From Escherichia coli (GTDB taxonomy: Bacteria; Pseudomonadota; Gammaproteobacteria; Enterobacterales; Enterobacteriaceae), in NCBI RefSeq assembly GCF_003334255.1, contig NZ_QOWU01000030.1: 59,578 bases of DNA; one strand, written 5' to 3'. Under the pieces are notes generated by a model, which was given only the letters and a program-made list of their open reading frames with translations, was not told the DNA's origin and made no database searches. Below are positions 4,281 through 54,054 of this stretch, piece after piece. Made by a program: the position numbers and the translations under genes. Position 1 is the first letter of the stretch; each line of letters begins with the position of its first letter.

Positions 4281-4307
4281 AATATTATCCTGTAGAGGAG
4301 AGAGTAA

Positions 4308-5033: not shown

Positions 5034-5060
5034 GCCGAAGCGACCTTTTTACCCGAAATG
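5034..5060 (-). terminator. Intrinsic terminator downstream of tktA (hairpin ggtcgc/gcgacc flanked by A-run and T-run, bidirectional)
   Basis: aaaaaaggtcgccgaagcgaccttttt read directly; 5 nt beyond tktA stop. Confidence 0.7.
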
Positions 5061-5064
5061 CTAA

Positions 5065-7056: not shown

Positions 7057-7333
7057 TTTGACTCCAGATCGGATGATGAAGGGCACGCCCTTAACGACTT
7101 GACGACAGCGCGTTTTGGGCTACGCCGGAAAATTTGCCAACAATTTACCGCAAGCCGCGCGTCATGTACATGGAACATCCTTTTGCCGCTTCAGAAATCT
7201 CTGGATCATGCTCGCATGTTGCGCAATCTACTCGCCCGTCCGCTGCGCTTTTCCTTATACTGAGACTGAGCGTCGATTCACCTGCAAACGGCGCATTTTT
7301 AGAATAATCCTGACCTTGTGCGGAAGAGAAAAC

Positions 7334-8092: not shown

Positions 8093-8099
8093 AGCCTGG

Positions 8100-8290
<191 letters not shown>

Positions 8291-8297
8291 CTGGTGC

Positions 8298-9218
8298 TTA
8301 CTCGCCCTTTTTCGCCGCCTGAATATACAGCATTTCCAGCGCCAGCGTTGCCGCTGCCAGAGCAGTGATTTCCGACTGATCGTATGCCGGAGCCACTTCC
8401 ACTACGTCCATCCCAACAATGTTGAGATCTTTCAGGCCGCGTACCAGTTTAATAGCGCGATCGGAGGTCAGGCCGCCAATCACTGGCGTACCGGTGCCTG
8501 GTGCAAAAGCAGGATCCAGGCAGTCGATATCAAAAGTCAGGTAAACCGGCATATCACCCACAATCTGTTTCACTTGGGCGATAACGTCATCCACGCTGCG
8601 ATCGTTCACCTGGCAGGCGTCCAGCACGGTAAAGCCGTTGTCTTTATCAAACTCGGTACGAATACCAATCTGCACGGAATGATTCGGGTCGATCAGACCT
8701 TCTTTCGGCGCGGTATAGAACATAGTGCCGTGGTCAAATTCACAACCGTTCGCATAGGTATCGGTGTGGGCGTCAAAGTGTACCAGCGCCATTTTGCCGA
8801 AATGCTTCGCATGAGCACGCAGCAGCGGCAGCGTAACAAAGTGGTCACCACCGAAAGAGAGCATACGCTTACCGGCAGCCAGCAGCTTCTCGGCGTGCGC
8901 CTGCAGCTTTTCGCTCATCTCACGGGCATCGCCAAAGGCATATACCAGATCGCCGCAGTCCACGACGTTCAGACGCTCACGCATGTCGAAATTCCACGGG
9001 AAGCGGTTGTGTTCCCAGGCCAGATTCGTCGAAACCTGACGGATCGCTGCCGGACCGTGGCGACCACCCGCACGACCAGAAGTGGCCATATCGAACGGCA
9101 CGCCAGTAATCACCCAGTCTGCATCGCTGTCATACGGCTGGAAGTTCATCGGCAGGCGTAAAAAACCAAAGGCATTGGAAACCAGTGAGTTATCGTATTG
9201 ATGACCTAAGGTGCTCAT
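8298..9218 (-). CDS. speB: Agmatinase, 306 aa
   Basis: Arginase-family sequence; downstream of speA on same strand. Confidence 0.95.
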
Positions 9219-9246
9219 GGATGGACTCCTATTACAAAGTCGATAT

Positions 9247-9286
9247 AAAAAAACCCTTCCGCGTCGTTAGGCCCGACGAGGAAGGG
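9247..9286 (-). terminator. Intrinsic terminator/attenuator between speA and speB
   Basis: Stem cccttcc…ggaaggg followed on the minus strand by a U-run (plus-strand aaaaaaa 9247-9253). Confidence 0.6.
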
Positions 9287-9355
9287 TTGGATTTGTCACA
9301 ATAAATTGTGGCGGATTATCACCGCTAAATTAAGCGGATTCAAGTAACACAGGAC

Positions 9356-11332
9356 TTACTCATCTTCAAGATAAGTATAACCGTACAAACCTGCCTCGAA
9401 CTCTTCAAGGAACTGTTGTTGCAGTTCAGCATCAAGATCGGTTTTCTTCACTTGATCGCGGAACTGGGTTAACAGCGTTTTCGGATCGAGCTGTACATAT
9501 TGCAGCATGTCCGCCACGGTATCGCCTTCGTCAGACAGTTCTACTTCTACGCTACCGTCAGGGAAGACGAACACGTCAACCGCTTCGGTATCACCGAACA
9601 GGTTGTGCATGTTGCCGAGGATCTCCTGATATGCGCCGACCATAAAGAAACCGAGCATCGGCGGATTCTCTGGATCGTACTCCGGCATTGGCATTGTCGT
9701 GGCAATACCGTCACCATCAATATAGTGGTCGATAGCACCGTCAGAGTCACAGGTAATATCCAGCAGCACAGCGCGACGTTCCGGCACTTGATCCAGCCCT
9801 TCCAGCGGCAGAACCGGGAACAACTGGTCGATCCCCCATGCGTCCGGCATCGACTGGAACAGCGAGAAGTTGACGTACATTTTGTCCGCCATACGTTCCT
9901 GCAGCTCGTCGATAATCGGACGATGAGCACGGTTTTGCGGATCCAGCTGCTTTTGCACTTCATGGCACATGCTCAAATAAAGCTGCTCAGCCCATGCACG
10001 TTCTTGCAGGCTAAAGATGCCGGAAGAGTAGCCGATATGAATGTCGTGCAGATCCATCTGACTGTCGTGTAACCATTCACGCAGAGAACGGCGAGTTCCC
10101 GGTTCGTGCATCTCCTGCCAGGTTTCCCACATGCTTTGCAGCGCGCGCGGCGCATCTTCTGCAGGCGCGGTCGGCACCGTGTATTCGTTACGTTCCACGC
10201 CGATGATATTAGACACCAGCACGGTGTGATGCGCAGTCACCGCACGACCCGATTCGGTGATTACCGTCGGATGCGGCAGACCGTTTTCTTCACACGCATC
10301 GCCAATCGCCCAGATAATGTTGTTGGCGTATTCATTGAGGCCGTAGTTCACCGAACAGTCGGACTGCGAACGAGTACCTTCATAATCCACGCCCAGACCG
10401 CCGCCGACGTCGAAGCACTGAATATTGACGCCCAGCTTGTGCAGTTCCACATAGAAACGCGCGGATTCACGAACGCCTGTCGCGATATCGCGAATATTCG
10501 CCATCTGCGAACCGAGGTGGAAGTGCAGTAGTTGCAGGCTGTCGAGACGCCCGGCTTCACGCAGGGTTTCAACCAGTTGCAGTACCTGAGTCGCAGCCAG
10601 GCCGAACTTCGATTTTTCCCCGCCGGAGGACTGCCATTTACCCGAACCCTGCGAAGCCAGACGTGCACGCACGCCCAGACGAGGAACGACATTCAGACGT
10701 TCTGCTTCATCCAGCACAATGGCGATTTCTGACATCTTCTCAATGACCAGATAGACCTTGTGCCCCATCTTCTCGCCAATTAATGCCAGGCGGATATATT
10801 CGCGGTCTTTATAACCGTTGCAGACGATGACGCTACGGGTCATGCCAGCATGTGCCAGTACTGCCATCAACTCGGCTTTGGAACCGGCTTCCAGACCCAG
10901 CGGTTCGCCCGAATGAATCAGGGACTCAATCACGCGGCGGTGCTGGTTAACTTTGATCGGATAAACAAGGAAGTAATCGCCGTTATAGCCGTAGGATTCC
11001 CTCGCACGTTTGAACGCGGCGTTAATGGAACGCAAACGGTGCTGCAGGATCTGTGGGAAACAGAACAGTGCAGGCAGACGCTGGCCCTGTGCTTCACGAG
11101 TTTTCACTAACTGCGCGAGATCGACGCGAGCTTCCGGGACGTCCGGGTCCGGGCACACGCTAATGTGGCCCAGCTCGTTAACGTCATAGTAGTTATTGCC
11201 CCACCAGGCAATATTGTAAGTACGCAGCATCTTGCTGGCTTCCTGGGAGCTCATTGCAACCTCCTGCATGGAGCGTAGTACACCGTGTTCGCCCGCTGAC
11301 GAAGGCAAACCCATAGACATGTCGTCAGACAT
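9356..11332 (-). CDS. speA: Biosynthetic arginine decarboxylase, 658 aa
   Basis: Full-length PLP decarboxylase; track ORF over-extended by 4 codons, start [12 protein letters not shown] at 11332. Confidence 0.95.
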
Positions 11333-35786: not shown

Positions 35787-35862
35787 GCCCGGATAGCTCA
35801 GTCGGTAGAGCAGGGGATTGAAAATCCCCGTGTCCTTGGTTCGATTCCGAGTCCGGGCACCA
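35787..35862 (+). tRNA. pheV: tRNA-Phe (GAA anticodon)
   Basis: 76-nt sequence gcccggatagctcagtcggtagagcaggggattgaaaatccccgtgtccttggttcgattccgagtccgggcacca with CCA end. Confidence 0.97.
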
Positions 35863-35968
35863 CCTTACATCAAAGCCACTGGTCAGGAGTGAGAACCCTG
35901 ACGGGTGTCATCGGGAAGGTGTAAGATGTCGTGAATGTCTCTCATGCCATCTCATTTTCTCGATTTAA

Positions 35969-35997
35969 GGAGCATGTTGGACGCATGCTCCTTTTCT
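35969..35997 (+). terminator. Hairpin terminator downstream of pheV
   Basis: ggagcatg…catgctcc stem followed by ttttctc. Confidence 0.5.
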
Positions 35998-36061
35998 CGA
36001 TCATTTATTATGCTTGCAAAGCTTTTTCAGGTTGTCAACAACGGCAAAACAAAGTCATGAT

Positions 36062-37057
36062 CTAAAATACATCAGTAAGTTCTGCCAGTTCTTTTTCAAG
36101 CACTCTTGCCGTCCCCTTCAAATCGATTTCCACATACTCCAGAGTGGTGGAAACATTCCTGTGCCCGAGCATGGTTTTCACCATATAAAGATTACGTTCC
36201 GGTGCACTCATCAGCGTACTGGCCAGCGTATGCCGAAAGCGATGAGGTGATACAGGGAAACCGCACTCTTTCGTCAGACGTCTGAAAAATCCTTTTACCG
36301 GTTGCAGTTCCGGAAGTCCGGTAACGAACGGTGCTTCTGACATCAATGCCACATAACGATGATAATGGAAAAGATAATCCTCAGGTCTTGCCCCCCGTTT
36401 CATCGCCTCATCAATCAAGTGCCTCATTCCCGGGACAAGATGACTGACCATAGGGATACGCCACTCATGGTGTGTCTTACTTCCCTCCGAACACAGATCA
36501 ATCCATCTTTCATCCGGATTAACATCCCGCAGACGCAGGTGAAGTAACTGATTTAGCCTCATCCCGGTAAAACGCAGCGTATTTACCACAATCATCCAGT
36601 ACCATGCCGGACGAATCGCACAACTACGCCAGTGCACACCACCAGAACGCTTCTCCTCTTCATGAAACTGTTCAAGAATCAGCAGAATTCGTTTTACCTG
36701 TTTCTTCGTCAGTGTTTTCTTACGTTTCTTTTCCTGTCTGACATTCATACCATCAAACGGATTCTCACTTAAATTAAGAAGTGTTGAGGAACATGCAAAA
36801 TTGAAAATGGCACGCATATGGCGAACCTTGTTATTCCATGTGTGCGTGGAGCGATTCTGTTTTTTCAGAACCTCTCGTTTCCATTCCCTCACATGCTGTT
36901 GCCGGATATCCTCCGGTAAAAGGGTCTCGCCAACAAACTTCCGGAATCCATTCAGAACCTTTAGGTAACTCCACTCCGTAGCCACTCTCACTGAACGGCA
37001 GAAAAAATATTCATCCATAAGCTCGTTCCAGCGCATGTCAGCATGACTTAATTTCAT
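36062..37057 (-). CDS. Tyrosine site-specific recombinase / island integrase, up to 331 aa
   Basis: Catalytic-domain motifs HRFRHTLAS and LGHRNVSTTLEYVEID (R…HxxR…Y); about 200 bp from tRNA-Phe 3' end; exact start among M1/M8/M14 unresolved. Confidence 0.85.
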   Translation of the reverse strand: MKLSHADMRWNELMDEYFFCRSVRVATEWSYLKVLNGFRKFVGETLLPEDIRQQHVREWKREVLKKQNRSTHTWNNKVRHMRAIFNFACSSTLLNLSENPFDGMNVRQEKKRKKTLTKKQVKRILLILEQFHEEEKRSGGVHWRSCAIRPAWYWMIVVNTLRFTGMRLNQLLHLRLRDVNPDERWIDLCSEGSKTHHEWRIPMVSHLVPGMRHLIDEAMKRGARPEDYLFHYHRYVALMSEAPFVTGLPELQPVKGFFRRLTKECGFPVSPHRFRHTLASTLMSAPERNLYMVKTMLGHRNVSTTLEYVEIDLKGTARVLEKELAELTDVF

Positions 37058-37099
37058 AATTAAACCCTTTACAAATAGGTTACATTTTTACCAAAATAC

Positions 37100-41170: not shown

Positions 41171-41466
41171 GCATTCTTGGTGACAGGCACCAGTATTTCA
41201 GACAGCACGCCGGTTTTCGGTAGTACACCGGACAATGCGATTACAAACTCGCTGATTTCACTGGCGTTCTGTAATTCGTTATTAACTCACGCATGGATTT
41301 GTGATCTCTGCGACATACACAGAAACAAAAACATCTTTATTTATATAACACTGGCTTTTCTTCATCTTATTTTAATCAATTCATGCACCCATTTTATCTA
41401 CGCCACTTTTTATTAATTCAGTTAACTCCGTCTTAACAGACAGAAATAGTGAAAAAGGTGATACTG

Positions 41467-42138
41467 ATGAATATATTAAGATACTTAAGTATTTCGCTCT
41501 TCGCGTTCTCATTTTCATATACCGCCACAGCCTCCACTCAGATATCATCATCGCACAACCACGCCGAAAAACGTGCAATCGGTACGCTGAAATTTATACG
41601 GGCCGACGGACAACGACCGTTTGGTCAGGCTATGAAACAATTATTACCCACCGGCTGGCGTACTGAGATTGCCCGTGACGTCCGGCTCCCCGCCAGAATA
41701 TCATGGTCCGGAAATGACCAGTGGAACCATGTTATCGAAAAAACGCTGCCCCGCTACAGCCTGAAAGCCACATTTGATACCTCAGGGAAACGCGTACTGA
41801 TCCAGCAGGCGGAAAAAACGGTAAAATCTGGCCTGTTTTCTGCCCCCGTAACCGGTGTCAAAAAAACAGAAACACGTCATATTGAGCAGGGAATGACCCT
41901 GCGTACAGGGCTGGAAAAATGGGCAGCCGCCGAACCTTGCGCTACCGGGAAATGGAAAGTGGCATGGAAAACGCCGGTAAATTACAGTATCGATGCCCGG
42001 TTAGTTTTTTCAGGTAATTTTATGGATGCACTGAACAGTACATTCGCACTTTATCAGCAGGCTGAAAAACCCTTATATGCCTCGGTGAATAAAAACCAGT
42101 GCGTGCTGATAATTACTGACATCCCGGGGGACAGCTAA
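41467..42138 (+). CDS. Pilus-assembly accessory protein (PilL/TcpQ-like, tentative)
   Basis: Signal peptide; first gene of a block co-linear with the R64 thin-pilus operon; ATG 41467 with AGGTG SD (track starts at GTG 41449). Confidence 0.45.
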   Translation: MNILRYLSISLFAFSFSYTATASTQISSSHNHAEKRAIGTLKFIRADGQRPFGQAMKQLLPTGWRTEIARDVRLPARISWSGNDQWNHVIEKTLPRYSLKATFDTSGKRVLIQQAEKTVKSGLFSAPVTGVKKTETRHIEQGMTLRTGLEKWAAAEPCATGKWKVAWKTPVNYSIDARLVFSGNFMDALNSTFALYQQAEKPLYASVNKNQCVLIITDIPGDS

Positions 42139-42573
42139 ATGGGATGGCTCATGCCCCTCATAATGGCACTGTTTATCATCGGGAACTGGTTTCATGCCGG
42201 CAATACGGAGCGGGCAATAAAAAATACTGATGAGCAGCAAAGACAACAACAGGCATATGAAATATTACGCCTGACAAATGCCATTAATGACTGGAAATAT
42301 CATCATCCCGGTGATATCCGTGAAGGAAAGATGCTTACGGTTAACGAAACCGGATTCGCTCCGGTATACGGAACAAAACATATTATTTCAGGGCAAAGAA
42401 CTTTTGTCTGGCTTCCTTTTCAGCCAGGGCTGATATCAGCCCTGAATGAAGTGAGCCGAAACTCAGCATTAATTGCGCAGGTCAGGGACAGAAAGTTACT
42501 GGATAACCAAGGAAATAATATTGGTGTTCCGCCTTCCGTTATACCGGAAAATGCGATCGTCCTGATCAATTAA
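42139..42573 (+). CDS. PilM-like small membrane-associated protein (tentative), 144 aa
   Basis: N-terminal hydrophobic segment; size and position match R64 pilM. Confidence 0.4.
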   Translation: MGWLMPLIMALFIIGNWFHAGNTERAIKNTDEQQRQQQAYEILRLTNAINDWKYHHPGDIREGKMLTVNETGFAPVYGTKHIISGQRTFVWLPFQPGLISALNEVSRNSALIAQVRDRKLLDNQGNNIGVPPSVIPENAIVLIN

Positions 42574-42781: not shown

Positions 42782-44383
42782 ATGAAAAAATTTTTCTGCG
42801 CTGTCACCGCCTTATCCGTTGTTTTATCAGGCTGCAGCAGTTTTGAACGAATCAGTGCCACAGAAAAAAAAGCATCCGATGAGATAACACGGGCTGAACG
42901 TATAGCCGGTGAACTTCGCAAACAACGCGCCGTTGTGCGCGAAACAAACCAGCAGTGGATCAATACCACGCCCCTTCCGGAAAAAACCGTTACCCGGGCA
43001 ATACCGGATTGCCCGGTCGTCATAAACACCCGGGAAGCCATCACACTTCACCAGATTGCACAGCGGATTTCTGAAACCTGTCATATTCCGGTTCAAATCA
43101 TGTCTGATGTCTGGACACTGCTGGGTACCGGAGAAAATCGCACACAGAGGATCAGCGGCGACATTCCCCCGCCTGATACCAGTGGCATGCAGCCACTGAG
43201 CACCGTGGGGCTGTCATCAGCCGCCCCCTCCACGGCCTCACTGCCGGAACTCAATGTTCAGGGGCTGCCCGCTTTGCTTGACACCGTATCTTCACGCTTT
43301 GGGATCACCTGGCGCTATGTGAAGGGAAAAATTGAATTCCACTGGCTTGACACCCGTACATTCCCGGTCACCTACATGGACAGCCAGGTCGCCTACAATG
43401 CCAGAGTCGTCAGTGGCACCATGTCATCCACGGGCAGTTCCGGTGGTTCATCCGGCAGTTCCCTGAGTGGTGATGCCAGCAATACGCAGACAACCGCGGT
43501 TGATATGAAATCCACACTCTATGAAGACACAAAAAATGCCGTGAATTCCATGCTGACGCCCGGTATCGGAAGGATGGTGTTGTCCACCGGCTTTCTGACC
43601 GTAACCGACACACCACAGGTTCTGGATACTGTTAAGAATTTTATGGAAGAACGTAACCGGGAAATGCGCCGTCAGGTTGTGCTGAATATTGAAATCCTGA
43701 GCATCAAAAAAACCAGCAAAGAGCAGGCCGGAATCGACTGGAACGCCGTTTTCAGTGACGGACATCTCGGTATAGACCTGACCAGTGCATTTACTAATGC
43801 CGCCGATGAAGTCGTGACCAGTGGGGTATCGATTATTGACGGTAAGCTCACCGGTTCAAAAGCGTTTCTGAAAGCGCTTTCATCACAGGGTAAAGTCAGT
43901 GTGGTCACCCAAAACTCGGCTGTCACCAAAAACCTGACGCCGGTTCCTATGCAGGTCGCCAACCAGCAGGGGTACATAGAAAGTGTCACCACGGATACGA
44001 CGGCCAATGTGGGCTCCTCCACCTCACTGAATGCGGCAACAATCACCACCGGCTTCAACATGACACTGTTACCGTTTATCCAGCCCGGCTCACACCGGTT
44101 GCAGTTACTGTTCAGCATGAGCCTGTCCGACAAACCTGTTTTTGAAGTGTTTGAAAGCGGTGGCAGTCGGGCCCAGACACCGAGTGTTGAGCTGAAAACC
44201 ATCAACCAGACCATCGACCTGAAATCAGATCAGACTGTGATCCTGAGCGGATTCCAACAGTTCAGCCGGAAATCGCTCAGACAGGGCGTGGGCACCCCGT
44301 CATTCTTCGGACTCGGTGGTGGCGTGGACAGTGCAGATGACGACACCATTCTGGTTGTGCTGATCACACCGCACGTAATCTGA
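42782..44383 (+). CDS. pilN: Secretin-type outer-membrane lipoprotein (PilN-like), 533 aa
   Basis: Lipobox VLSGCSS; Ser/Gly-rich linker; secretin-like C-terminus (…DDDTILVVLITPHVI). Confidence 0.7.
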   Translation: MKKFFCAVTALSVVLSGCSSFERISATEKKASDEITRAERIAGELRKQRAVVRETNQQWINTTPLPEKTVTRAIPDCPVVINTREAITLHQIAQRISETCHIPVQIMSDVWTLLGTGENRTQRISGDIPPPDTSGMQPLSTVGLSSAAPSTASLPELNVQGLPALLDTVSSRFGITWRYVKGKIEFHWLDTRTFPVTYMDSQVAYNARVVSGTMSSTGSSGGSSGSSLSGDASNTQTTAVDMKSTLYEDTKNAVNSMLTPGIGRMVLSTGFLTVTDTPQVLDTVKNFMEERNREMRRQVVLNIEILSIKKTSKEQAGIDWNAVFSDGHLGIDLTSAFTNAADEVVTSGVSIIDGKLTGSKAFLKALSSQGKVSVVTQNSAVTKNLTPVPMQVANQQGYIESVTTDTTANVGSSTSLNAATITTGFNMTLLPFIQPGSHRLQLLFSMSLSDKPVFEVFESGGSRAQTPSVELKTINQTIDLKSDQTVILSGFQQFSRKSLRQGVGTPSFFGLGGGVDSADDDTILVVLITPHVI

Positions 44384-44394
44384 CGGAGGTTCCC

Positions 44395-45693
44395 TTGAAC
44401 GGGTCAATGCAGAAAAAAATTCGTCCAGTGTCACTGATATCGGGTAAACAGGCATTCCTTGCGGGCCTTGACTGGAAAAACATGCCTCCCGGTTACCGGA
44501 ATGCCCGGCGGTTTGCACAGTCACAGGGCGCAGAACTGTATCTTTCCTGCCACAACCACGACGGTGAAAACGGTGATGAAATGATGATTGCCCTGCTCAG
44601 TCGTCAGGATGCAGATATCCCCCGTAACATTCGCCAGTGCCTGTCACTGGCGATGTTAATACGCCCGCTCCTCAAATCAGGTGGGTATGCCATTTTCATC
44701 ATCGAGAACGACGACGCTGAACTCACCTGTGCGTTTGTATCGGTGATTAATGGCATTCTGGTTAACGACGTTACCGGTACCCCGACTGAAATCACGGAAG
44801 CCCGCAACACGTTCCTGATGCTCAATGCGGAACCGGAAAACGGCTGGGTACGCTACGAACCTGACGGTTTTTCACCAGACAGTCGGTGTATCCCGCTACC
44901 GCTGTCAAACCTGATCAGCACCAGAAAGCATCCGGCAGAAGCGCGTCTGCTCCCCGTGTCCAGAGGCCCACAGTTAATGACAGCCTTACTCATCATCACG
45001 CTGCTTGGCGCATCGTGGTACGGCTGGCAACGTTATGAAATCTGGCAGGCGGAAAAAGCGGAACGTGAAGAAAGCGCCCGGAAATCAGCTGAAGCACGTA
45101 TAACGCCACCATGGACGGGGCAGCCTGAGACCGGAGAATTTATCCGGCAATGCAGCACAACATGGAACCAGACGCCACTGTCTGCTGCCGGATGGCGTTA
45201 TACCCTGGCTGAATGTTCTTCTGACGGTAACAGCGGTAATCTGCGGTCTTCATACACCAATACAGCAGGCACGACAGTGACAGCCTTCATCCGGCGCATC
45301 ACTGAACTCACAGACACCCGGCCGTTTATTGTTATGCCTGAAGGGAACTCTGGCGGCGTTGCACTGCCGGTCACATTCCGGCTCCCAGATAATCCTGTCC
45401 CGGTTGATTCCCTTCCGGAAACCCGAGACCTGCAGGAACGACTGACCACGCTCGCACAGTCAGTTCAACTGCAGATTGACTGGCAGGAAGTCAATAACAG
45501 CTTCACTGATGAAAACGGAAACATCATCCAGCCACCGTGGAAAGAGTATGACCTGCAGATACAGACGCTACTCCCAGCTAACCAGCTGGCAGAGCGCTTC
45601 AGCGAGCCATCTGTCCGTTTTCTCTCCGTCACTAGACAACTGGAAAATGGTCGTTTCCGTTATCAGTTCACAGGTAAATATTATGCACGATAA
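44395..45693 (+). CDS. pilO: PilO-like pilus assembly protein, 432 aa
   Basis: Position and size match R64 pilO; TTG start 5 nt after GGAGG (or ATG at 44407); single TM segment. Confidence 0.55.
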   Translation: MNGSMQKKIRPVSLISGKQAFLAGLDWKNMPPGYRNARRFAQSQGAELYLSCHNHDGENGDEMMIALLSRQDADIPRNIRQCLSLAMLIRPLLKSGGYAIFIIENDDAELTCAFVSVINGILVNDVTGTPTEITEARNTFLMLNAEPENGWVRYEPDGFSPDSRCIPLPLSNLISTRKHPAEARLLPVSRGPQLMTALLIITLLGASWYGWQRYEIWQAEKAEREESARKSAEARITPPWTGQPETGEFIRQCSTTWNQTPLSAAGWRYTLAECSSDGNSGNLRSSYTNTAGTTVTAFIRRITELTDTRPFIVMPEGNSGGVALPVTFRLPDNPVPVDSLPETRDLQERLTTLAQSVQLQIDWQEVNNSFTDENGNIIQPPWKEYDLQIQTLLPANQLAERFSEPSVRFLSVTRQLENGRFRYQFTGKYYAR

Positions 45694-46144
45694 AACAAAA
45701 GCGCTGCTGATTGCAGCCCTGCTGTTACCGGCAATGGCGGTGGCCGGCAACGAAAATGACGCGCCGCAGAACAAACAACTGCAGATTGAGCAGATTCAGG
45801 AAGAAACCGCCCTGTATGAAGCGATGCTGGCAAGAGAAAAAATTCGTCATGAATTGCGGACACTGGAACAGGGTATCTCCCCGGTTTCCGGTTCTGTCAC
45901 GGGACATCAGCCGGAAAATGCGGCTGGCACCTCCTCCGGTTCACAGGCATTATCATCCCCCCGTCTGAAAGAAATCTTTGGTATTCAGCCACAGCTTTCA
46001 GCACGCGTCATACTCCCCGGAGGAACTGAAACTGATGTCAGGGCCGGACAGGCATTACCCGGCACGCTGTTCATGGTGGAACAAATCACACCGGAAAGTG
46101 TGATTCTGGAATACAACGGCAACAAGCAGACGCTACGCCCGTGA
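45683..46144 (+). CDS. pilP: PilP-like periplasmic protein, 153 aa
   Basis: Start MHDKTKALLIAALLLPAMAVA overlapping pilO stop by 11 nt; track ORF over-extended. Confidence 0.55.
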   Translation: MHDKTKALLIAALLLPAMAVAGNENDAPQNKQLQIEQIQEETALYEAMLAREKIRHELRTLEQGISPVSGSVTGHQPENAAGTSSGSQALSSPRLKEIFGIQPQLSARVILPGGTETDVRAGQALPGTLFMVEQITPESVILEYNGNKQTLRP

Positions 46145-46153
46145 GGTGCCATC

Positions 46154-47674
46154 ATGCCAGAGACTATCGTACTGCCTCCTGAAGATATTCGTGATTTCGT
46201 CGCAATTCAGCATGACGCTGACGGAAAAATCAGGGTGAAAGTCGTCGAAGCGAAGAAGCACATCACCTCTGTACAACGTTACCTGACGCTCTTACGCTCC
46301 CGCTATCCGGAAAAAATCAGCAAATTCGATTTTACCACTCTTGACGTTATCGCAGCCCTGAACAGCAATAATACGGAACGTGCACCGGGCGTTTTATCCG
46401 ACGGAGGGATCAACACAGTACAAAGAAAAGTTCTTGATTACATCAGAAAAGCCGCTCAACTGAATGCCTCAGATCTGCATATCACACCAGGACGCGACAA
46501 CACGGACTTCACCTATGTGGAAGCCCGGGTTCACGGCGAACTGGAAGTGCTCGATATCCTCCGGAAAGAAGAAGGCCTCGAATTACTGGGGGCCACCTAT
46601 TCCGGCATGACCGACGTCATCAAGGGCACACAGTTTGATCCCGGGGTGCCTCAGGATGCGCGTCTTTCAGAACAGTACCTGAAACTGGCAGGTCTGTTTG
46701 GTGCACGCTACTCCCACTACCCCTGTGTGGGCGGTCTCTATGCCGTGCTCCGGCTGATCAAGGATGACAGCCAGCAAATCCCGACCTTCAGTATGCTGGG
46801 CTACCACCCTGAGCAGGAGCGCACCCTGCGACGTATTCTGCAACGTCCTGAAGGCATTATCACACTCTCAGGCCCCACCGGCTCAGGAAAATCCACCACG
46901 CTGAGAACCGCCTCTGCGGCATACCTTGAACAGTACGGCTTCAACAACACCGGCGGTATTCTTCTTCCCCGTCGCAGGCTGTTCACCATTGAATCCCCAC
47001 CGGAAGGGCGTATTCCCGGTGCCATTCAGACCGCCGTCATGGATACCGCGCAGGGCTGGGTGGACTCCATCAAATCAGCGTTGCGTCTTGATCCTGACGG
47101 GATCCTGAACGGTGAAATCCGCGACCACGATTCCGCTATTACGGCGATAAAAGCCGCCATGACCGGGCATCTGATGCTGACCACCATCCATGCGAACGAC
47201 CCGATTAATATCCTCGAACGCCTTGAGATGGAAGGCGTTCAGACTAGGATGATCGCCGACCCACAGTTGTTCATCGGCCTGCTGAGCCAGCGTCTGGTTC
47301 AGCTGATATGTCCGCACTGCCGTCGCCCCTGGCATGAGGTGGCCACCGGACGCACGGATGATGAACGGCACCTAGTGGAAGGCTTCTGTAACCCGGACCA
47401 GGTGTATCTGAGAAATCATGAAGGCTGCCCACACTGCTGGCGTGGCGTGACGGGGCGAACGGTTATCGCAGAAGTCATCTCCCCGGATGCCCGTTTTTTC
47501 CAGTTGTACCGGGAAAAGGGCCGTATTGAGGCTAAAACCTACTGGCACAGAGAACTGGGCGGAATGACCCGAAATCAGCATCTCCAGGGAAAAATCAACA
47601 GCGGACAGGTTGATCCGCTAGCGGCCCATTACATCTCTCCCATCGACGAGGACAGCTATACGCTGTTGCACTGA
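46154..47674 (+). CDS. pilQ: Type IV pilus assembly ATPase (GspE/PilB family), 506 aa
   Basis: Walker A LSGPTGSGKSTTL, Asp box, His box (TIHANDP), tetracysteine motif (CPHC…CPHC). Confidence 0.85.
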   Translation: MPETIVLPPEDIRDFVAIQHDADGKIRVKVVEAKKHITSVQRYLTLLRSRYPEKISKFDFTTLDVIAALNSNNTERAPGVLSDGGINTVQRKVLDYIRKAAQLNASDLHITPGRDNTDFTYVEARVHGELEVLDILRKEEGLELLGATYSGMTDVIKGTQFDPGVPQDARLSEQYLKLAGLFGARYSHYPCVGGLYAVLRLIKDDSQQIPTFSMLGYHPEQERTLRRILQRPEGIITLSGPTGSGKSTTLRTASAAYLEQYGFNNTGGILLPRRRLFTIESPPEGRIPGAIQTAVMDTAQGWVDSIKSALRLDPDGILNGEIRDHDSAITAIKAAMTGHLMLTTIHANDPINILERLEMEGVQTRMIADPQLFIGLLSQRLVQLICPHCRRPWHEVATGRTDDERHLVEGFCNPDQVYLRNHEGCPHCWRGVTGRTVIAEVISPDARFFQLYREKGRIEAKTYWHRELGGMTRNQHLQGKINSGQVDPLAAHYISPIDEDSYTLLH

Positions 47675-47675
47675 C

Positions 47676-48776
47676 ATGAGATTTCTGGAAAAACTCAACA
47701 ACACCGACATTGAGCTGACAGCACTGACCGTCTGGATAGCCAGAAAAATCTTTGCCCTGAACCGGGTGGAGTTCTACGAATCCCTGGGCGGCATGATACG
47801 TGACGGGACCCCGTCACTGCGTGCACTCGAATTTCTCTGCAATGTCGAAACTGACTTCGGAACCCGGAAAGGGACATCAGGCATGTATTTTCTGGCGAAG
47901 GAATGCATCGCGTCCATTAAATCCAGCGGCATGTTATCCGGTGCTCTGCCCACCTGGGTGCCGCCGGAAGAAGCCACGCTCATTCGGAACGGGGAAGAGC
48001 GCGGGAATATTGCCGACGCGCTTTTCCAGGTGGCCAGAACCGTTAAGGCACGGCGGGAAATGACATCCAGCCTCATTGCCGTCTGCCTCTACCCCCTTCT
48101 GCTGCTTTCGCTCTGTGTGGTGAATATGTACAACGCCCATACCCGTATTGTCCCCATCGTCAGTGCGTTTGCTGCAGAAGATAAATGGTCATTCCAGATG
48201 AAAGTGCTGGCTGGCATGTCGGAGTTTTTCATCGGGTACGGATTCTGGCTCTGCGGGGCCAGTTTCACCCTGACTGTTCTGATCCGTTTTTCATTCAGCC
48301 GGTATACCGGCCCCGGCAGGAGGATGCTGGACAGGATTCCCCCCTGGTCACTGTATCAGACCTTACACGGGGTGAATTATCTGTTCAGTATTTCATCCAT
48401 GTTGCAGATCAATATTCCTCTTTCGCAGGCGCTGCTCCGAATGGAAAAAGGGGCAGAAAATAATAAATGGTTAAAGGAGAGAATTCAGGCAATAAGAAAA
48501 CATGTATTATCCGGTCAGAATCTGGCCACGGCAATGCGAAATTCCGGTTACGATTTCCCGTCCAGAATATGTATCAATAAACTGCTCCTGAATTCCGAAA
48601 GGGAGGACAGTGTGGCAGCCATGGCGCTCTATGCCGATCAGTGGCTGGAGGAAGCAAAAAAACGGGTAAAACGAATTGGATTAATTATTACCGGTATATC
48701 AGGAGGTTTTGTCTTCTTTTTTATTCTTAACATGATATCTGCCATCTACAGTATCAGCGACATGCTGAAGCAATAA
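47676..48776 (+). CDS. pilR: Type IV pilus inner-membrane platform protein (GspF/PilC family), 366 aa
   Basis: Polytopic membrane protein directly after the ATPase, 1-nt gap. Confidence 0.75.
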   Translation: MRFLEKLNNTDIELTALTVWIARKIFALNRVEFYESLGGMIRDGTPSLRALEFLCNVETDFGTRKGTSGMYFLAKECIASIKSSGMLSGALPTWVPPEEATLIRNGEERGNIADALFQVARTVKARREMTSSLIAVCLYPLLLLSLCVVNMYNAHTRIVPIVSAFAAEDKWSFQMKVLAGMSEFFIGYGFWLCGASFTLTVLIRFSFSRYTGPGRRMLDRIPPWSLYQTLHGVNYLFSISSMLQINIPLSQALLRMEKGAENNKWLKERIQAIRKHVLSGQNLATAMRNSGYDFPSRICINKLLLNSEREDSVAAMALYADQWLEEAKKRVKRIGLIITGISGGFVFFFILNMISAIYSISDMLKQ

Positions 48777-48827
48777 TCCCCGCCATACAGAATATTTCTT
48801 AAATATCCCATACACCAGGAGTGACAT

Positions 48828-49364
48828 ATGAACTTCAGAGCACGTATTTTTTATTACTTTTCTTTAAAAAAAGAGAAAGAGGAGGATAAAGGTTTAACAT
48901 TACTGGAAATTGCCGGCGCACTAATTATCATCGGTATTGTGGTTGCTCTCGCAATGAGTCAGATGTCCAGCACAATGGCATCCAGTGACAACCAGCGAGA
49001 ACTGAAAAACCTGCAGACCATTGCAACCAAAATGAAGCAGTACAAGTTCCAGGGCAGATATACCGGCACGGATTATATCAAAACCCTGACGGAAAGCGGA
49101 TCCCTGCCGGCTGATATGATTGCCGGAGGCAACAAAGCCAAAAACGCATGGGGAGGCGATGTCACCATTGCAACAACAAGTAATAAATACGGTTATATTA
49201 TAACCAGCAAAGCCGTGCCAAAAGAAAACTGTGTTGAACTGATTAACAGCCTGCGCAGTTCATCCATGTTCACAAAAATCAAAGGCCAGACACCTGCCAG
49301 TGTGGATCCGGTAACTGTATGTTCTGCCGCCACAAACGATATAACGCTCGAAACCAGCAGTTAA
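48828..49364 (+). CDS. pilS: Type IVb major prepilin, 178 aa
   Basis: Long leader then …KGLTLLEIAGALIIIGIVVALA (pilin processing motif, Glu+5); AGGAG SD. Confidence 0.75.
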   Translation: MNFRARIFYYFSLKKEKEEDKGLTLLEIAGALIIIGIVVALAMSQMSSTMASSDNQRELKNLQTIATKMKQYKFQGRYTGTDYIKTLTESGSLPADMIAGGNKAKNAWGGDVTIATTSNKYGYIITSKAVPKENCVELINSLRSSSMFTKIKGQTPASVDPVTVCSAATNDITLETSS

Positions 49365-49376
49365 TATCCTGACACA

Positions 49377-49399
49377 GCGCCCCCCCCGGGGCGCTTTTT
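49377..49399 (+). terminator. Intra-operon intrinsic terminator after major pilin gene
   Basis: gcgcccc/ggggcgc stem, cccc loop, ttttt tail, 13 nt after pilS stop. Confidence 0.6.
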
Positions 49400-49414
49400 C
49401 CGGAGCACATCCGC

Positions 49415-49897
49415 ATGAAATGGTTATTTCTTTCTGTCGTGATTTTTCCGTTATCTTTCACCCTTCCGGCTGAAGCTACCGCCACAAACACATTACTGGA
49501 CAGTTGCTTTATTCAGGCCGGGAAACGCTATCTGATTGCCCCTGAGCTTCTTAAAACCATTGCACAGCAGGAAAGCAGCCTGGTCGCCACCGCGATAAAT
49601 CACAATAAAAACAAATCCGGAAAAATCATCAGTACGGATTACGGGATTATGCAGATTAATTCAGTACATATTCCTGAGCTGAAAAAACTGGGGGTCATTA
49701 AAGATAAAAATGAACTGCTTAATAATCCCTGCCTGAATATTCAGACCGGTGCCTGGATACTGGCCCGCCATTTTCAACGCTGCGGCGTTAACTGGGAATG
49801 CCTTGGCAGCTATAACGCCGGATTCAGCAAAAATAACACAGCCCGGCGCATGATATATGCCCGAAAAATCCACAACCGGTATTTCAGAAAAGATTAA
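49415..49897 (+). CDS. pilT: Soluble lytic transglycosylase-domain protein, 160 aa
   Basis: Signal peptide; SLT motifs (…IAQQESSL…, …YGIMQINSVH…). Confidence 0.8.
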   Translation: MKWLFLSVVIFPLSFTLPAEATATNTLLDSCFIQAGKRYLIAPELLKTIAQQESSLVATAINHNKNKSGKIISTDYGIMQINSVHIPELKKLGVIKDKNELLNNPCLNIQTGAWILARHFQRCGVNWECLGSYNAGFSKNNTARRMIYARKIHNRYFRKD

Positions 49898-49907
49898 TTA
49901 ATACGAG

Positions 49908-50564
49908 GTGACGGTGAGCGCATTACTGAGCATGGCAATAATAATCATCATCCTGGCGGTTATTCTTTATCTTGCATACAGCACCGCCGCCATCTATCTG
50001 TCAGCAGTACACGACACCCGGCCACCAAAGCCGGTGGTGTACATATGTTGTCTTCTGGCCATAGTGAGTGTCAGTCTCAACGGCGCATATGGTGTTGAGG
50101 CCACGGGGCTGTTATTCCTTTCCATTCTGACGGGATTATTAACTGTAATGACGCTGACGGATATTGCTGTCTGTCGGCTTCCCCGGATATTCACGCTTTC
50201 TCTTATTATTCTGGGCGCAGCGTTCAGATACAGCCAGGACTCACTGACTCATGCCCTGCTCAACGCGTCACTGTGGTTCGGCATGATATACCTGTTACGA
50301 CGCATTTTTCTGGCAGCGAAAGGGACGGAAGCGCTCGGCCTTGGTGATGTGTTCCTGATTGCGGGGATCGCAATGTGGACGCAACCGCAACACACTCCAC
50401 TGATAATCACCGCCGCAGCCTCCGGAGCATTTCTGTTTATCCTCATTTTCTGCCGTCGCAGATGCCAGTTAGCGCTGCCGTTTGCCCCGTTTCTCTGCGC
50501 GTCCCTGTATGTGCTGACCCTCTTCCCTGATTCCGTTATCCACACATCGGAGATATTCACGTGA
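49908..50564 (+). CDS. pilU: Prepilin peptidase (A24 family), 218 aa
   Basis: Polytopic membrane protein with LGLGDVFLIAG motif; start codon uncertain (GTG 49908 / GTG 49914 / ATG 49932). Confidence 0.7.
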   Translation: MTVSALLSMAIIIIILAVILYLAYSTAAIYLSAVHDTRPPKPVVYICCLLAIVSVSLNGAYGVEATGLLFLSILTGLLTVMTLTDIAVCRLPRIFTLSLIILGAAFRYSQDSLTHALLNASLWFGMIYLLRRIFLAAKGTEALGLGDVFLIAGIAMWTQPQHTPLIITAAASGAFLFILIFCRRRCQLALPFAPFLCASLYVLTLFPDSVIHTSEIFT

Positions 50565-51850
50565 AAAAATTCAGACACGATGACGATAAAGGTTTTATTC
50601 TGCTTGAGGTTCTGGCGGGACTGATAGTGATTGGTATTGCCACACCAATGATTTATTCAGAAATTGAAGACTGGCTGAATGAACAACTTTATCAAAGTGC
50701 GGCTTTACATGCTGATGAATATAATAATGCAATAAAAAATTATGTGGCTGATAAAACCAGCTCACTCTCCAGTAAAACTATCACGGTAAATGAATTAATT
50801 CAGCAGGGATATCTGAACAACGGTTTTTCCCGCTCCCCCTTTGGACAAAGCTATATTACCGGTATCAGAAAAAATAATTTATCCGGTCGTCTGGAAGCAC
50901 TTACCTGCACAACCGGAGGACAGGATATTAAAGAAGATGGGTTACGTCGCATAGCGGGCCAGATTAATGGACTCGGTGGTTTTATGCTCCAGAATAATTC
51001 CGTTACAGGTTCCTTTGGCGGCTGGACCGATCTGGGAAGTAATTATCAGATTACCTGCAACAAGGGGCATATCGCCATGCGAATGGCAGGAAAAGATCTG
51101 GAGGAAAGCGATCGGCTGTACCGCTACAGCGTTCCGGGAAGACCCGATTTAAACAGAATGCATACTGGCATTGATATGAATAATAACAGCATCACCAATA
51201 TCAATGAAGCCAGTGGTAAAAACGCCAGATTTTCAGGCGATGTCACATCAAATCGTTGGTTACATCCAAATGGTGGCGGCTTCACCATGACGGACAGCCA
51301 GTGGATACGTGCTGTTAACAACAAAGGGATCACAACCGAAGGAGAGCTCAAAGGAGGAAAAGTCAGTGGTGGAACTGTCCGGTCTGAGGGGCGTCTTTCC
51401 ACGGGTGAGTATTTACAGCTGGATAAAACAGCTACTGCAGACACTTTCTGCTCACCAGACGGACTTGTAGGCCGCGACAGCAAAGGAGCAATACTTTCGT
51501 GCCAATCCGGTGCCTGGCGAACGATTGGTGCGCCTGACGGAAGTTACAGCAATTTGGGTTCTCACAGGGGAACATTTAACGGGAGAAATAACGGCAGAGG
51601 AACTTTGTTTGTGTACGCTTCCGGTGGAAATAGTGCCGGTGGCGGTGATTGCGCCAACACATCAAATCTTCAGGGCTATGTGAACGGCGCTTTCATTGGT
51701 ATGAATGCCAGCAATAACCCCTCCTACGGAAAGACGGCATTTATTTCATTTGCCGTGCCAGTGGGAGCGTCATATCAAATCATCTCCAGACCAACACAAA
51801 ATTACGCCTGTGGTAACGGTGTTTTCTCTTTGTATGCCTATCAGATGTGA
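50561..51850 (+). CDS. pilV: Minor pilin/adhesin PilV with shufflon-encoded C-terminus (current isoform), 429 aa
   Basis: Prepilin N-terminus …KGFILLEVLAGLIVIG; GTG start overlapping pilU stop; sfx repeat in frame as S-C-Q-S-G-A-W at 51499-51517. Confidence 0.75.
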   Translation: MKKFRHDDDKGFILLEVLAGLIVIGIATPMIYSEIEDWLNEQLYQSAALHADEYNNAIKNYVADKTSSLSSKTITVNELIQQGYLNNGFSRSPFGQSYITGIRKNNLSGRLEALTCTTGGQDIKEDGLRRIAGQINGLGGFMLQNNSVTGSFGGWTDLGSNYQITCNKGHIAMRMAGKDLEESDRLYRYSVPGRPDLNRMHTGIDMNNNSITNINEASGKNARFSGDVTSNRWLHPNGGGFTMTDSQWIRAVNNKGITTEGELKGGKVSGGTVRSEGRLSTGEYLQLDKTATADTFCSPDGLVGRDSKGAILSCQSGAWRTIGAPDGSYSNLGSHRGTFNGRNNGRGTLFVYASGGNSAGGGDCANTSNLQGYVNGAFIGMNASNNPSYGKTAFISFAVPVGASYQIISRPTQNYACGNGVFSLYAYQM

Positions 51851-52822
51851 GTCCCTAGCTGGCTTTAACAATGTAGTTAAATGCAATGTTTTTGGGACGC
51901 ATTTCTGTGGTACTCCCCTGTGCCCAGTATGGCATACCACTATGATGCCCTTTCAGCCATCCGCCACGTTCGTGATAGACGCCTGATTGATCGGCCTGAT
52001 AACTCAGGAGCTGTCTGTTCTGATCACCATCAAGTCCCTTCCCGTTATCCCAGCCACGGATAAAAACACCGCGCAGATCGGGCAATTTACAGCCAGGATA
52101 AGCACGGGCAAGCTGAGGATACCGGGAACAGGAAAACGACTGGCCGTCCATCAACAGATAGCCTTGTGGAGGAGTGGCAGATGGCCACGGGATAGGGCTT
52201 CCCACAGGGTAGGATTCAAAGCCACCCCACACACCGGATTGGCACTGGCCTCCGTGCCAATCCGGTTCGTGGAAAAATGCAGGAAAAGGCGATATTGAAA
52301 TCGTCAAAGTAACAGCATCAAAACTCCGCTGGCCTGGTGCTACTGCCACCTGCCCAATGGGTAAGAAGGTGATCGGGGGTGGTGCAGAATGCAGCTCTGG
52401 AATTGGCTTTATCTGGCTTGTCCGTTCAATACCTGTAAACAATAATGCCTGGTATGGCTATTGCGATACGACAGAACACATCATTGGAAAAATAACTGTA
52501 CATGCCATTTGCCAATGACAAAGTGATTTACTGGCAAACCACAATGTAACTACATTTCCCCGTCAGGTCGTTCCTGTTTGTACCGCCGTGAAAATTGTAT
52601 TCATCGTAGTAACCACACTTCACAATCCTGTTCGAATCATATGTCGCAACAGAACCTGCGAAGTAATTTGGCTTCCAGCCATGCGGGTTCTCAGCATTGC
52701 TGACGCTCCAGGTACACTGGCTGGCAGAAAAACCAGACGGCAAAGGTAGTCGTTCTCCATTCGCGATTTTTCCTGTCAGAACAGTGCTACCTGATACCCT
52801 AATCCACGAACCGGATTGGCAC
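51499..52822. other. Shufflon: two invertible segments bounded by four 19-bp sfx repeats, four alternative pilV 3' exons
   Basis: sfx1 51499-51517 gtgccaatccggtgcctgg (+); sfx2 52227-52245 (-, rc gtgccaatccggtgtgtgg); sfx3 52254-52272 gtgccaatccggttcgtgg (+); sfx4 52804-52822 (-); open frames continue in-frame from each repeat: A 51518-51850 (+), A' 51855-52226 (-), B 52273-52518 (+), B' 52528-52803 (-). Confidence 0.8.
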
Positions 52823-52884
52823 GGCGATATTGCATTTCCGTTTCACTATTCCTACCTTCCCCGTTTTTATCGTGGAAGGCCGAT

Positions 52885-54054
52885 ATGTTTCGAAAAATCA
52901 AAATTCGCAAAATGACTCTCAACCGGGCGCTGGACAAATACCTGAAAACCGTTTCCGTCCATAAAAAAGGTCATCTGCAGGAGTTTTATCGCGTCAATGT
53001 GATTAAACGTCACCCTATGGCCGATCGCTATATGGATGAAATCACGACCGTTGATATCGCCGGTTACCGGGATCAGCGTTTGGCTCAAATTAACCCACGA
53101 ACAGGGCGTCAAATCACCGGAAATACCGTCCGTCTTGAACTTGCCCTTTTATCATCATTATTCAATATCGCCCGTGTGGAATGGGGAACATGCCGTATGA
53201 ATCCTGTTGAACTGGTCCGAAAACCGAAAATCAGTAATGGCCGCGACCGCCGACTGACTTCTGGTGAAGAACGCCGCCTTTCCCGCTATTTCAGGGACAA
53301 AAATCCGCAGCTCTACGTTATCTTCCATCTGGCTCTGGAAACAGCAATGCGCCAGGGAGAAATTCTCTCATTACGCTGGGAACACCTCGATTTGCAGCAC
53401 GGCGTGGCGCATCTTCCTGAAACGAAAAATGGCTCACCACGCGACGTACCACTCTCCCGGAAAGCACGTAACTACCTGCAAATTCTGCCACAACAGATAA
53501 ACGGCAATGTGTTCAGTTACACCTCGTCCGGTTTCAAAAGCGCCTGGCGTACCGCTCTTCTGGATCTGAAAATAGAAAATCTGCATTTTCACGATCTCCG
53601 CCATGAGGCCATCAGCCGTCTGTTCGAGCTCGGCACACTGAACGTTATGGAGATTGCAGCCATTTCCGGTCACCGCTCCCTGAACATGTTGAAACGGTAC
53701 ACACATCTCCGGGCATATCACCTGGTCAGTAAACTCGATGCAAGGCGTAAACAGACCAGCAAAATTTCCCCTTATTTTGTTCCCTACCCAGCAACTGTCA
53801 GAAACAGAAACGGAGTGTTCATTGTGACACTGCACGATTTCGACCTTGAAAGCCGTGCTGACACCCGGGAACTGGCAATATCTCACGCCAGCGTATTGTT
53901 GCTGCGCGCACTGGCCCAGGCTGCTCAGCGGGGTGAACGCGTCCCCACACCAGGCGAGCTACCCGCAAACATTGATGAACGGGTCATGATTTGTCCGTTA
54001 ACAAACAGCCAGTTCATGACAAAAGCGAACAGTATTTTCATATCCTCCTCCTGA
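52885..54054 (+). CDS. rci: Shufflon-specific tyrosine recombinase (Rci-like), 389 aa
   Basis: Motifs [10 protein letters not shown] and [13 protein letters not shown]; GGAAGG SD; immediately downstream of sfx4. Confidence 0.8.

Follow-up and report, generated by a model that had tools for sequence, protein, structure and literature searches.

The window, a 59,578-nucleotide stretch of Escherichia coli DNA, carries an R64-type type IVb thin-pilus operon that runs on the forward strand from pilL to pilV and is followed by an rci shufflon. This is very probably a standard operon of its kind, in which pilO starts at TTG 44395, pilU at GTG 49914, pilV at GTG 50561 and the other eight genes at ATG codons. 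The assignment draws on the positions of the codons, their pairing energies, the constraints imposed by the open reading frames and conservation across relatives, and from these we infer that the codons are used in the cell. An earlier note on this DNA had named non-ATG codons as the best-placed starts of pilO, pilU and pilV and as the track start of the PilL-like gene, and all four are present where it had placed them; those of pilO (even against the RefSeq annotation), pilU and pilV were upheld as likely starts, whereas the fourth gave way to the more likely ATG 41467.

The identity of the operon is supported by the way RefSeq annotates an island 99.98% identical to this one. Both the ORF map and the RefSeq annotation give the collinear order pilL-M-N-O-P-Q-R-S-T-U-V, and the open reading frames of all 11 pil genes are intact. 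The same order is found in IncI1-, IncK- and Yersinia-type plasmids, and IncI2 plasmids, which are without pilL and pilM, are collinear only from pilN to pilV. PilN and PilP matched NCBIfam models above their cut-offs; NCBIfam contained no matching model for the PilL-like protein, PilM, PilO2, PilS, PilU or PilV, and Pfam was used for proteins without such a model. In Pfam, PilO2 matched PF06864 (PAP_PilO, E-value 2e-35), PilU matched Peptidase_A24 (PF01478, E-value 2.9e-11), PilV matched Shufflon_N (E-value 1.8e-51) and the PilL-like protein matched TcpQ.

The genes that start at ATG include pilN, encoding the secretin lipoprotein (42782..44383), pilP (45683..46144), which overlaps pilO by 11 nt, and pilQ, encoding the assembly ATPase (46154..47674), 9 nt past the pilP stop. 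The platform protein gene pilR (47676..48776) follows the pilQ stop by 1 nt and is without a Shine-Dalgarno sequence, while the major pilin gene pilS (48828..49364) has AGGAG upstream. Between pilS and the lytic transglycosylase gene pilT (49415..49897, ATG start) lies a terminator-like G+C-rich hairpin followed by five T residues (49376..49399, forward strand); a consensus terminator scan had missed this hairpin, which was confirmed by folding and is also present in two of the related plasmid operons (L010 and L011). Beyond pilV, the shufflon (51499..52824) consists of a pair of segments that can invert (51499-52245 and 52252-52824), with four GTGCCAATCCGGT-type repeats (19-bp-type inverted repeats) at their boundaries; the segments supply alternative pilV 3' ends. 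Both are inverted relative to a near-identical RefSeq island. The rci-type site-specific recombinase gene (52885..54054, forward strand) starts at ATG, in agreement with RefSeq.

The arrangement matches that of the pil and shufflon regions of R64 and ColIb-P9 (IncI1), where the same order pilL-pilV is followed by the rci recombinase gene and invertible segments. The protein families common to both are the PilN secretin, PilO2, PilP, the GspE-type ATPase, the GspF-type platform protein, the PilS pilin, the transglycosylase, the A24 peptidase and PilV with its Shufflon_N domain. However, the R64 and ColIb-P9 operons are plasmid-borne whereas the copy in the window is chromosomal, and an IncI1-type operon (L009) has ATG for 11/11 genes, a PilO2 only about 24% identical to that of the window and a PilL that is a 355-aa lipoprotein rather than, as in the window, a TcpQ-domain protein of 223 aa that has no lipobox. 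ATG is likewise used for all genes in the other more distant operons, L007 and L008. Closer relatives are the IncK2/Z and IncI2-like operons (L018, L005, L006, L010 and L011), which share the pilO start position, occupied by TTG or GTG with GGAGG upstream. Moreover, L018, L010 and L011 have GTG starts for pilU and for pilV, the latter in the same GTGA overlap as in the window; L005, unlike the window, has ATG for both genes. These operons also differ from the window in being plasmid-borne and, in the IncI2-like case, in having no pilL or pilM. The pilQ-traF part of the window is about 94% identical at the DNA level to IncK2/Z plasmids, whereas pilL-pilP has diverged much further from the plasmid copies (PilO2 62% at the amino acid level, about 73% at the nucleotide level). 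Copies of the operon number 55 on chromosomes and roughly 2,600 on plasmids.

The likely start of pilO (44395..45693) is TTG 44395. As the earlier note had observed, this codon stands 5 nt downstream of GGAGG (44385..44389), a Shine-Dalgarno sequence that itself begins 1 nt past the pilN stop. The RefSeq start is ATG 44407, four codons further downstream. The anti-Shine-Dalgarno pairing energy is -10.7 kcal/mol for the TTG, a value reached by 2% of the TTG triplets in the window, and -4.6 kcal/mol for the ATG. Homologues with 41-62% protein identity share this start position, in each case 5-6 nt from an upstream GGAGG, and four other lineages keep it as either TTG or GTG: TTG is the sole candidate start in L010 and L011 (about 60% identity), TTG is the start in the IncI2 loci L006 and L015 (41%), GTG is the sole candidate in the IncK-type L018, and GTG is the start in L005 (62%). 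In those homologues the fifth PilO codon specifies Thr, Asn or Ser, and ATG 44407 is found in the chromosomal lineage only. Another gene caller chose the TTG in a cluster of 621 member sequences (P0001, 98% identical). Within the chromosomal group, which is 92-100% identical, the TTG and the ATG always occur together and so do not discriminate between the two starts. A search for PilO2 relatives in a collection of species-representative genomes returned only one IncI2-like locus (L015) and no new lineage. A third candidate, GTG 44428, was rejected; it is without a Shine-Dalgarno sequence (-0.6 kcal/mol) and is missing in L016 and L017.

If RefSeq were right, pilO would start at ATG 44407, and the TTG and GGAGG would be the relic of an ancestral start replaced by the new ATG. 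The ATG is called by PGAP in 4/4 independent chromosomal copies examined, and its confinement to this lineage could mark it as a recent improvement. ATG is also intrinsically the stronger initiator, and some or most pilO initiation could have shifted to it here. The replacement is nevertheless unlikely, given that the layout of GGAGG, 5 nt and TTG is fully kept, that the TTG is the first start codon met once pilN terminates, that the ATG has weak pairing of its own and stands 17 nt from GGAGG, and that PGAP is inconsistent on starts in the pil operon (pilM in L017 compared with L001; pilU extended upstream in L018). With respect to the spacing optima of Shine-Dalgarno sequences, 17 nt is poor for initiation. 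The same spacing argues against initiation at both codons, which would yield two PilO2 forms differing by four N-terminal residues. Two in-frame codons 12 nt apart behind one strong Shine-Dalgarno sequence would allow this, and annotation struggles to resolve alternative starts that lie close together (PMC13245402); however, relatives have a single start, and four residues ahead of a Pfam domain that begins at residue 22 are unlikely to matter functionally, making a dual start improbable. TTG 44395 is thus retained here as the likely start of pilO.

For the prepilin peptidase gene pilU (49914..50564), which begins 16 nt past the pilT stop, the open reading frame offers two in-frame GTG codons, 49908 and 49914, and the second of these is the likely start. 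Across the window, only 1.2% of GTG triplets reach its pairing energy of -11.6 kcal/mol, which compares with -2.4 kcal/mol for GTG 49908 and -7.8 kcal/mol for the downstream ATG 49932. GTG 49908 is contained in the Shine-Dalgarno sequence GAGGTGA (49905..49911) and so stands too near to it to act as the start; moreover, it is GTA in L016, where the GTG equivalent to 49914 is the sole candidate start. The downstream ATG is replaced by an Ile codon in both L016 and L017. An upstream ATG, the choice made by PGAP in L018, was rejected because the window has an in-frame stop, and the open frame begins only with the codon at 49902.

For pilV (50561..51850), which encodes the minor pilin or tip adhesin, GTG 50561 is the only possible start. 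No other ATG, GTG or TTG lies between the in-frame stop upstream and the prepilin leader (VKKFRHDDDKG/FILLE), and this holds for 7/7 clade members examined. The overlap with the pilU stop that had been reported earlier was confirmed, the codon forming GTGA with TGA 50562-50564. Its Shine-Dalgarno sequence, GGAGA at 50549-50553, gives an unexceptional pairing energy of -6.8 kcal/mol, which 14% of the GTG triplets in the window reach.

The PilL-like gene (41467..42138) most likely starts at ATG 41467, a call made from Shine-Dalgarno pairing alone. Although GTG 41449 comes first among the start codons in the ORF, it lacks a Shine-Dalgarno sequence and has a pairing energy of -1.0 kcal/mol, against -9.9 kcal/mol at ATG 41467, which is preceded by AGGTGAT (41456-41462). 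Tblastn alignments of the PilL-like protein to plasmids begin at residue 41 or later and so do not extend to the start. The protein has a signal peptide, and its N-terminus, MNILRYLSISLFAFSFSYTATAST, was found to be without the L-x-G-C motif whose lipobox cysteine is a trait of the outer-membrane lipoprotein PilL. Plasmid PilL proteins carry LSGC or LTGC and have only the C-terminal TcpQ domain in common with the PilL-like protein. The gene pilM (42139..42573) probably starts at ATG 42139, with no gap between it and the pilL stop, and the protein predicted from there has the conserved N-terminus MGW; RefSeq starts it at ATG 42163.

The suggestion that these starts reflect tight translational coupling applies to pilV, with its 4-nt overlap, and does not extend to pilO (+11 nt) or pilU (+16 nt), each of which has a strong Shine-Dalgarno sequence of its own. 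Under distance criteria taken from PMC10666635 (about -8 to +6 nt), the pilU/pilV junction (-4 nt) lies within the coupling range and the pilN/pilO and pilT/pilU junctions lie outside it. Among coupling arrangements in prokaryotes the 4-nt overlap (ATGA or GTGA) is the most frequent, and a class of E. coli gene pairs with gaps of +9 to +12 nt carries Shine-Dalgarno sequences (PMC10666635). The remaining tight junctions, pilL/pilM (0 nt), pilO/pilP (-11 nt) and pilQ/pilR (+1 nt), all have ATG starts; start-codon type and coupling are therefore not associated here. Complementarity to the 3' end of 16S rRNA, 4-10 nt upstream of the start, places pilO and pilU in the top 1-2% of such triplets, and is moderate for pilV. 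These features suggest that at pilO and pilU a strong Shine-Dalgarno sequence at a spacing of about 5 nt would recruit ribosomes within the intercistronic gaps, and that pilV may be reached mainly via termination-reinitiation at the GTGA overlap, aided by the moderate GGAGA. The pilU/pilV junction resembles known cases of termination-reinitiation at 4-nt overlaps, although only 1/3 of the non-ATG starts is of this type and coupling is here read from the sequence.

The number of non-ATG starts in the operon is no more than expected by chance. Non-ATG codons start 3/11 genes (2/11 by the RefSeq annotation), compared with 14/130 (10.8%) of the flanking annotated E. coli genes (binomial p = 0.11 or 0.34, respectively). 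With the share of 17% that Hecht et al. quote for E. coli (bioRxiv 10.1101/063800) as the background, the corresponding values are p = 0.28 and 0.58. The start codons are uninformative about foreign origin, with no excess over neighbouring genes and with ATG in 9/9 other annotated island genes, and the earlier proposal that they indicate it was not borne out. It is thus very improbable that they mark the genes as foreign, or as decaying and poorly expressed, for although the operon sits on a horizontally acquired island, all of its reading frames are intact and the same start codons are retained in conjugative IncK2/Z and IncI2-like plasmids. Foreign origin is evident instead from the tRNA-Phe insertion site, the integrase and the near-identity to plasmid genes. 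The island is inserted at tRNA-Phe in the E. coli chromosome, adjoining yqgA, and is also present in STEC genomes. In these respects, of site and host, it is like ICEEc8 (PMC6455142), an integrative conjugative element inserted at pheV in LEE-negative Shiga-toxin-producing E. coli, to which it may belong.

GTG and TTG give 10-100% of the output of AUG (Hecht et al., bioRxiv 10.1101/063800). The weaker starts would probably yield less PilO2, prepilin peptidase and minor pilin/adhesin relative to the ATG-started PilS, and downstream output would be lowered further by the terminator-like hairpin that follows pilS. The most likely role would be a modest down-tuning of low-abundance components. The lacI gene of E. 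coli has a conserved functional GTG start that lowers protein output with an effect on fitness (PMC11445065), and a role of this kind is proposed for the pil genes, although lacI is a regulator gene whereas these encode pilus components. A bolder reading is that the weak pilO, pilU and pilV starts have been selected across chromosomal, IncK2/Z and IncI2-like operons, that together with the hairpin they fix a stoichiometry, and that the TTG/ATG tandem yields two PilO2 forms. This is conceivable but doubtful. The chance probability of finding no ATG in four lineages is about 0.2, and with so small a number of lineages no claim of selection is made.

GTG and TTG starts are routine in 10-17% of E. 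coli genes, so the finding is an ordinary one; earlier descriptions cover both this family of operons and its occurrence on pheV islands, and nothing here is novel. If the weak starts do set component ratios, there would be a small gain in understanding thin-pilus assembly. The practical value lies in two RefSeq protein models that probably need correcting: PilO2 WP_001169833.1 probably lacks 4 residues at its start and PilM WP_001173154.1 probably lacks 8. Start calls by PGAP for pilM, pilO and pilU were also seen to be inconsistent between near-identical copies.

The window is part of an E. coli chromosome and from 38000 onwards matches that of STEC2018-553 (NZ_CP075665.1) at 99.98% identity, shufflon inversions excepted. 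The island starts at a tRNA-Phe gene (~35.8 kb), which is followed in order by a tyrosine recombinase, a TraI-like nickase/helicase and a UvrD-type helicase, then by eleven collinear annotated type IVb thin-pilus genes (pilL-like, pilM, pilN, pilO2, pilP, pilQ, pilR, pilS, pilT, pilU and pilV) and, 3' of these, the shufflon segments, a site-specific recombinase and traF. Pfam matches (PAP_PilO, 2e-35; Peptidase_A24, 2.9e-11; Shufflon_N, 1.8e-51; TcpQ, 2.4e-16), together with PilN and PilP scores exceeding NCBIfam cut-offs, agree with the annotated pil gene names. Gene order is identical on IncI1-gamma/K1, IncK2/Z, Yersinia ruckeri and Salmonella plasmids; IncI2 plasmids keep it from pilN to pilV only, with pilL and pilM absent. 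The tRNA-Phe gene lies beside yqgA (the pheV site; 35788-37058), with the tyrosine recombinase immediately inside the island. This insertion site is shared with ICEEc8, a conjugative element described from LEE-negative STEC that is inserted at pheV and carries type IV pilus genes (PMC6455142), a likeness judged from site and description. Upstream of speA (1-9356) the gene content is unlike that of STEC2018-553, with glpX, yggP, cmtA and tkt directly adjoining and no dga/PTS cluster, and nucleotides 1-78 of the window match one end of IS1; the window thus comes from another strain with the same island.

For every open reading frame, all ATG, GTG and TTG codons were listed from the upstream in-frame stop to the conserved part of the protein. 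Pairing was taken as the best duplex (kcal/mol) between the 20 nt upstream of a candidate and the 3' end of 16S rRNA, and start regions were compared across 13 related loci. An earlier note had proposed non-ATG codons as the best starts of pilO (TTG 44395), pilU (a GTG) and pilV (GTG 50561), and had pointed to a non-ATG track start of the PilL-like gene (GTG 41449). All four codons are present at these positions and the proposal was mostly right: it stands for pilO, pilU and pilV but not for the PilL-like gene, where pairing favours ATG 41467.

The predicted pilV start is as secure as sequence analysis permits. Apart from GTG 50561 (-6.8), no possible start separates the in-frame stop from the prepilin leader VKKFRHDDDKG|FILLE, and a GTG is likewise the only candidate in all seven clade members, namely the window, the chromosomal islands L002 and L017 (strain SCU-106), L016 (strain SF-088), the IncK2/Z plasmid L018 and the metagenomic IncI2-like operons L010 and L011. 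In the window this codon forms a GTGA overlap with the end of pilU, has GGAGA 7 nt upstream and is also the RefSeq start.

The pilU frame opens at 49902 and offers GTG 49908 (-2.4), GTG 49914 (-11.6) and ATG 49932 (-7.8). GTG 49908 lies within the GAGGTGA Shine-Dalgarno sequence (49905-49911), too near for use. L016 has GTA in place of the upstream GTG and ATA in place of the downstream ATG, which leaves the equivalent of GTG 49914 as the sole candidate there; L017 also lacks the downstream ATG. GTG 49914, the RefSeq start in the window's island, was chosen. The RefSeq pilU of L018 begins 57 nt further upstream, at an ATG within pilT, an extension that a stop codon blocks in the window.

For pilO the candidates are TTG 44395 (-10.7), ATG 44407 (-4.6) and GTG 44428 (-0.6). 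GGAGG stands exactly 5 nt upstream of the TTG, and of the 1,762 TTG triplets that the window contains just 2% pair as strongly as this one. In 4/4 chromosomal copies examined the RefSeq start is ATG 44407, a codon 17 nt from GGAGG. The comparative evidence is the stronger argument for the TTG. In the metagenomic operons L010, L011 and L012 (~60% PilO2 identity) pilO opens cacGGAGGttatc/tTTG, with no other start in the open frame; in the IncI2 plasmids L006 and L015 (41%) it opens ttGGAGGtcactTTG, and in the IncK-type plasmids L005 and L018 (62%) aAGGAGGacgatcGTG, the sole candidate in L018. The residue count before the A/V-F-L-x-G-L motif in these homologues equals that from the window TTG, and at codon 5 they have Thr, Asn or Ser, not Met. 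Another gene caller places the start of P0001, a 98%-identical cluster with 621 member sequences, at the TTG. A start at ATG 44407, or at both codons, divides between its two forms the smaller share of the probability; TTG 44395 is probably the main start.

Among the PilL-like candidates, GTG 41449 (-1.0) is the first start codon in frame and lacks a Shine-Dalgarno sequence; the next is GTG 41458 (-3.9). AGGTGAT (41456-41462) precedes ATG 41467 (-9.9), also the RefSeq start, at good spacing. Either start yields a plausible signal peptide. It is the ribosome-binding site that makes ATG 41467 very probably the start, because alignment with homologues does not extend over the N-terminus. The predicted protein (41467-42138) has 223 aa and a signal peptide that lacks the lipobox cysteine, whereas plasmid PilL proteins are lipoproteins of ~355 aa that have only the C-terminal TcpQ domain in common with it; L016 carries yet another N-terminal half. 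Abutting the pilL stop is pilM ATG 42139, with GGGGGA 8 nt upstream (-8.6), which gives the N-terminus MGW, as in IncI1- and IncK-type PilM. PGAP uses the equivalent start in L017, where codon 9 is ATC, not ATG. RefSeq, with ATG 42163, probably starts pilM 8 codons too late.

Computed with the revised starts, the junctions are 0 nt (pilL/pilM), +208 nt (pilM/pilN), -11 nt (pilO/pilP), +9 nt (pilP/pilQ), +1 nt (pilQ/pilR), +51 nt (pilR/pilS) and +50 nt (pilS/pilT), all with a downstream ATG, and +11 nt (pilN/pilO, TTG), +16 nt (pilT/pilU, GTG) and -4 nt (pilU/pilV, GTG). Termination-reinitiation is supported only for junctions of about -8 to +6 nt, and the E. coli class with gaps of +9 to +12 nt, to which pilO belongs, has its own Shine-Dalgarno sequence (Huber et al., PMC10666635). 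The tight translational coupling suggested earlier thus fits pilV but not pilO or pilU. Start type and junction tightness were not associated (non-ATG in 1/4 tight and 2/7 loose cases).

The start codons, also taken earlier as consistent with foreign origin, add nothing to that case. Of 130 RefSeq-annotated genes on either side of the island in the reference strain, 14 (10.8%) have non-ATG starts, and the other annotated island genes have ATG in 9/9. Over the 11 pil genes no excess above chance was found by binomial test, against this background (3/11, p = 0.11; 2/11, p = 0.34) or the quoted E. coli ATG/GTG/TTG split of 83/14/3% (Hecht et al., bioRxiv 10.1101/063800; p = 0.28 and 0.58, respectively). 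Non-ATG starts are an ordinary feature of this operon; the one tangible result is that the island's RefSeq PilO2 model, and incidentally that of PilM, is probably a few residues short. The foreign origin itself is clear from the tRNA insertion site, the integrase and the ~94% DNA identity with IncK2/Z plasmids from pilQ to traF. The operon is mosaic: this identity, shared with related plasmids, begins in the pilQ interior (~46465), and pilL to pilP has only ~73% DNA identity to plasmids (PilO2, 62% aa), a step that implies a recombination breakpoint inside pilQ.

Reporter output in E. coli from GTG or TTG is 10-100% of that from AUG (Hecht et al., bioRxiv 10.1101/063800), and the native GTG of lacI has a measured fitness role (PMC11445065). 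The weak starts fall on the assembly factor, prepilin peptidase and minor pilin/adhesin genes; pilS, for the major pilin, has ATG with AGGAG upstream. Between pilS and pilT (49376-49399) a G+C-rich hairpin of 8 bp (AGCGCCCC/GGGGCGCU) precedes UUUUU, a terminator-like and stable arrangement (61-nt stretch, -22.4 kcal/mol, z = -3.6); the hairpin recurs with differing loops in L010 and L011, and a consensus terminator scan missed it. It is plausible that hairpin and weak starts would jointly limit the amounts of the downstream products relative to PilS. More distant operons have ATG throughout, and the four lineages without ATG at pilO carry no statistical meaning.

L002 (6203-8366) and L017 (5244-6840) carry a ~2-kb insertion between pilO and pilP, at the equivalent of window ~45611-45783, where the window has none. 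Two or three predicted membrane proteins without assigned function are encoded on it, and the pilO/pilP overlap is directly duplicated around it over 173 bp, which leaves both genes intact; L018 has instead two extra open reading frames between pilP and pilQ. The window shufflon (51499-52824) comprises two segments bounded by four GTGCCAATCCGGT-type repeats (51499-51517, 52227-52245, 52254-52272 and 52806-52824). Each segment keeps its place but has the opposite orientation to its counterpart in the STEC2018-553 RefSeq island, which is otherwise 99.98% identical, so that the PilV C-terminus differs (429 aa in the window versus 442 aa).
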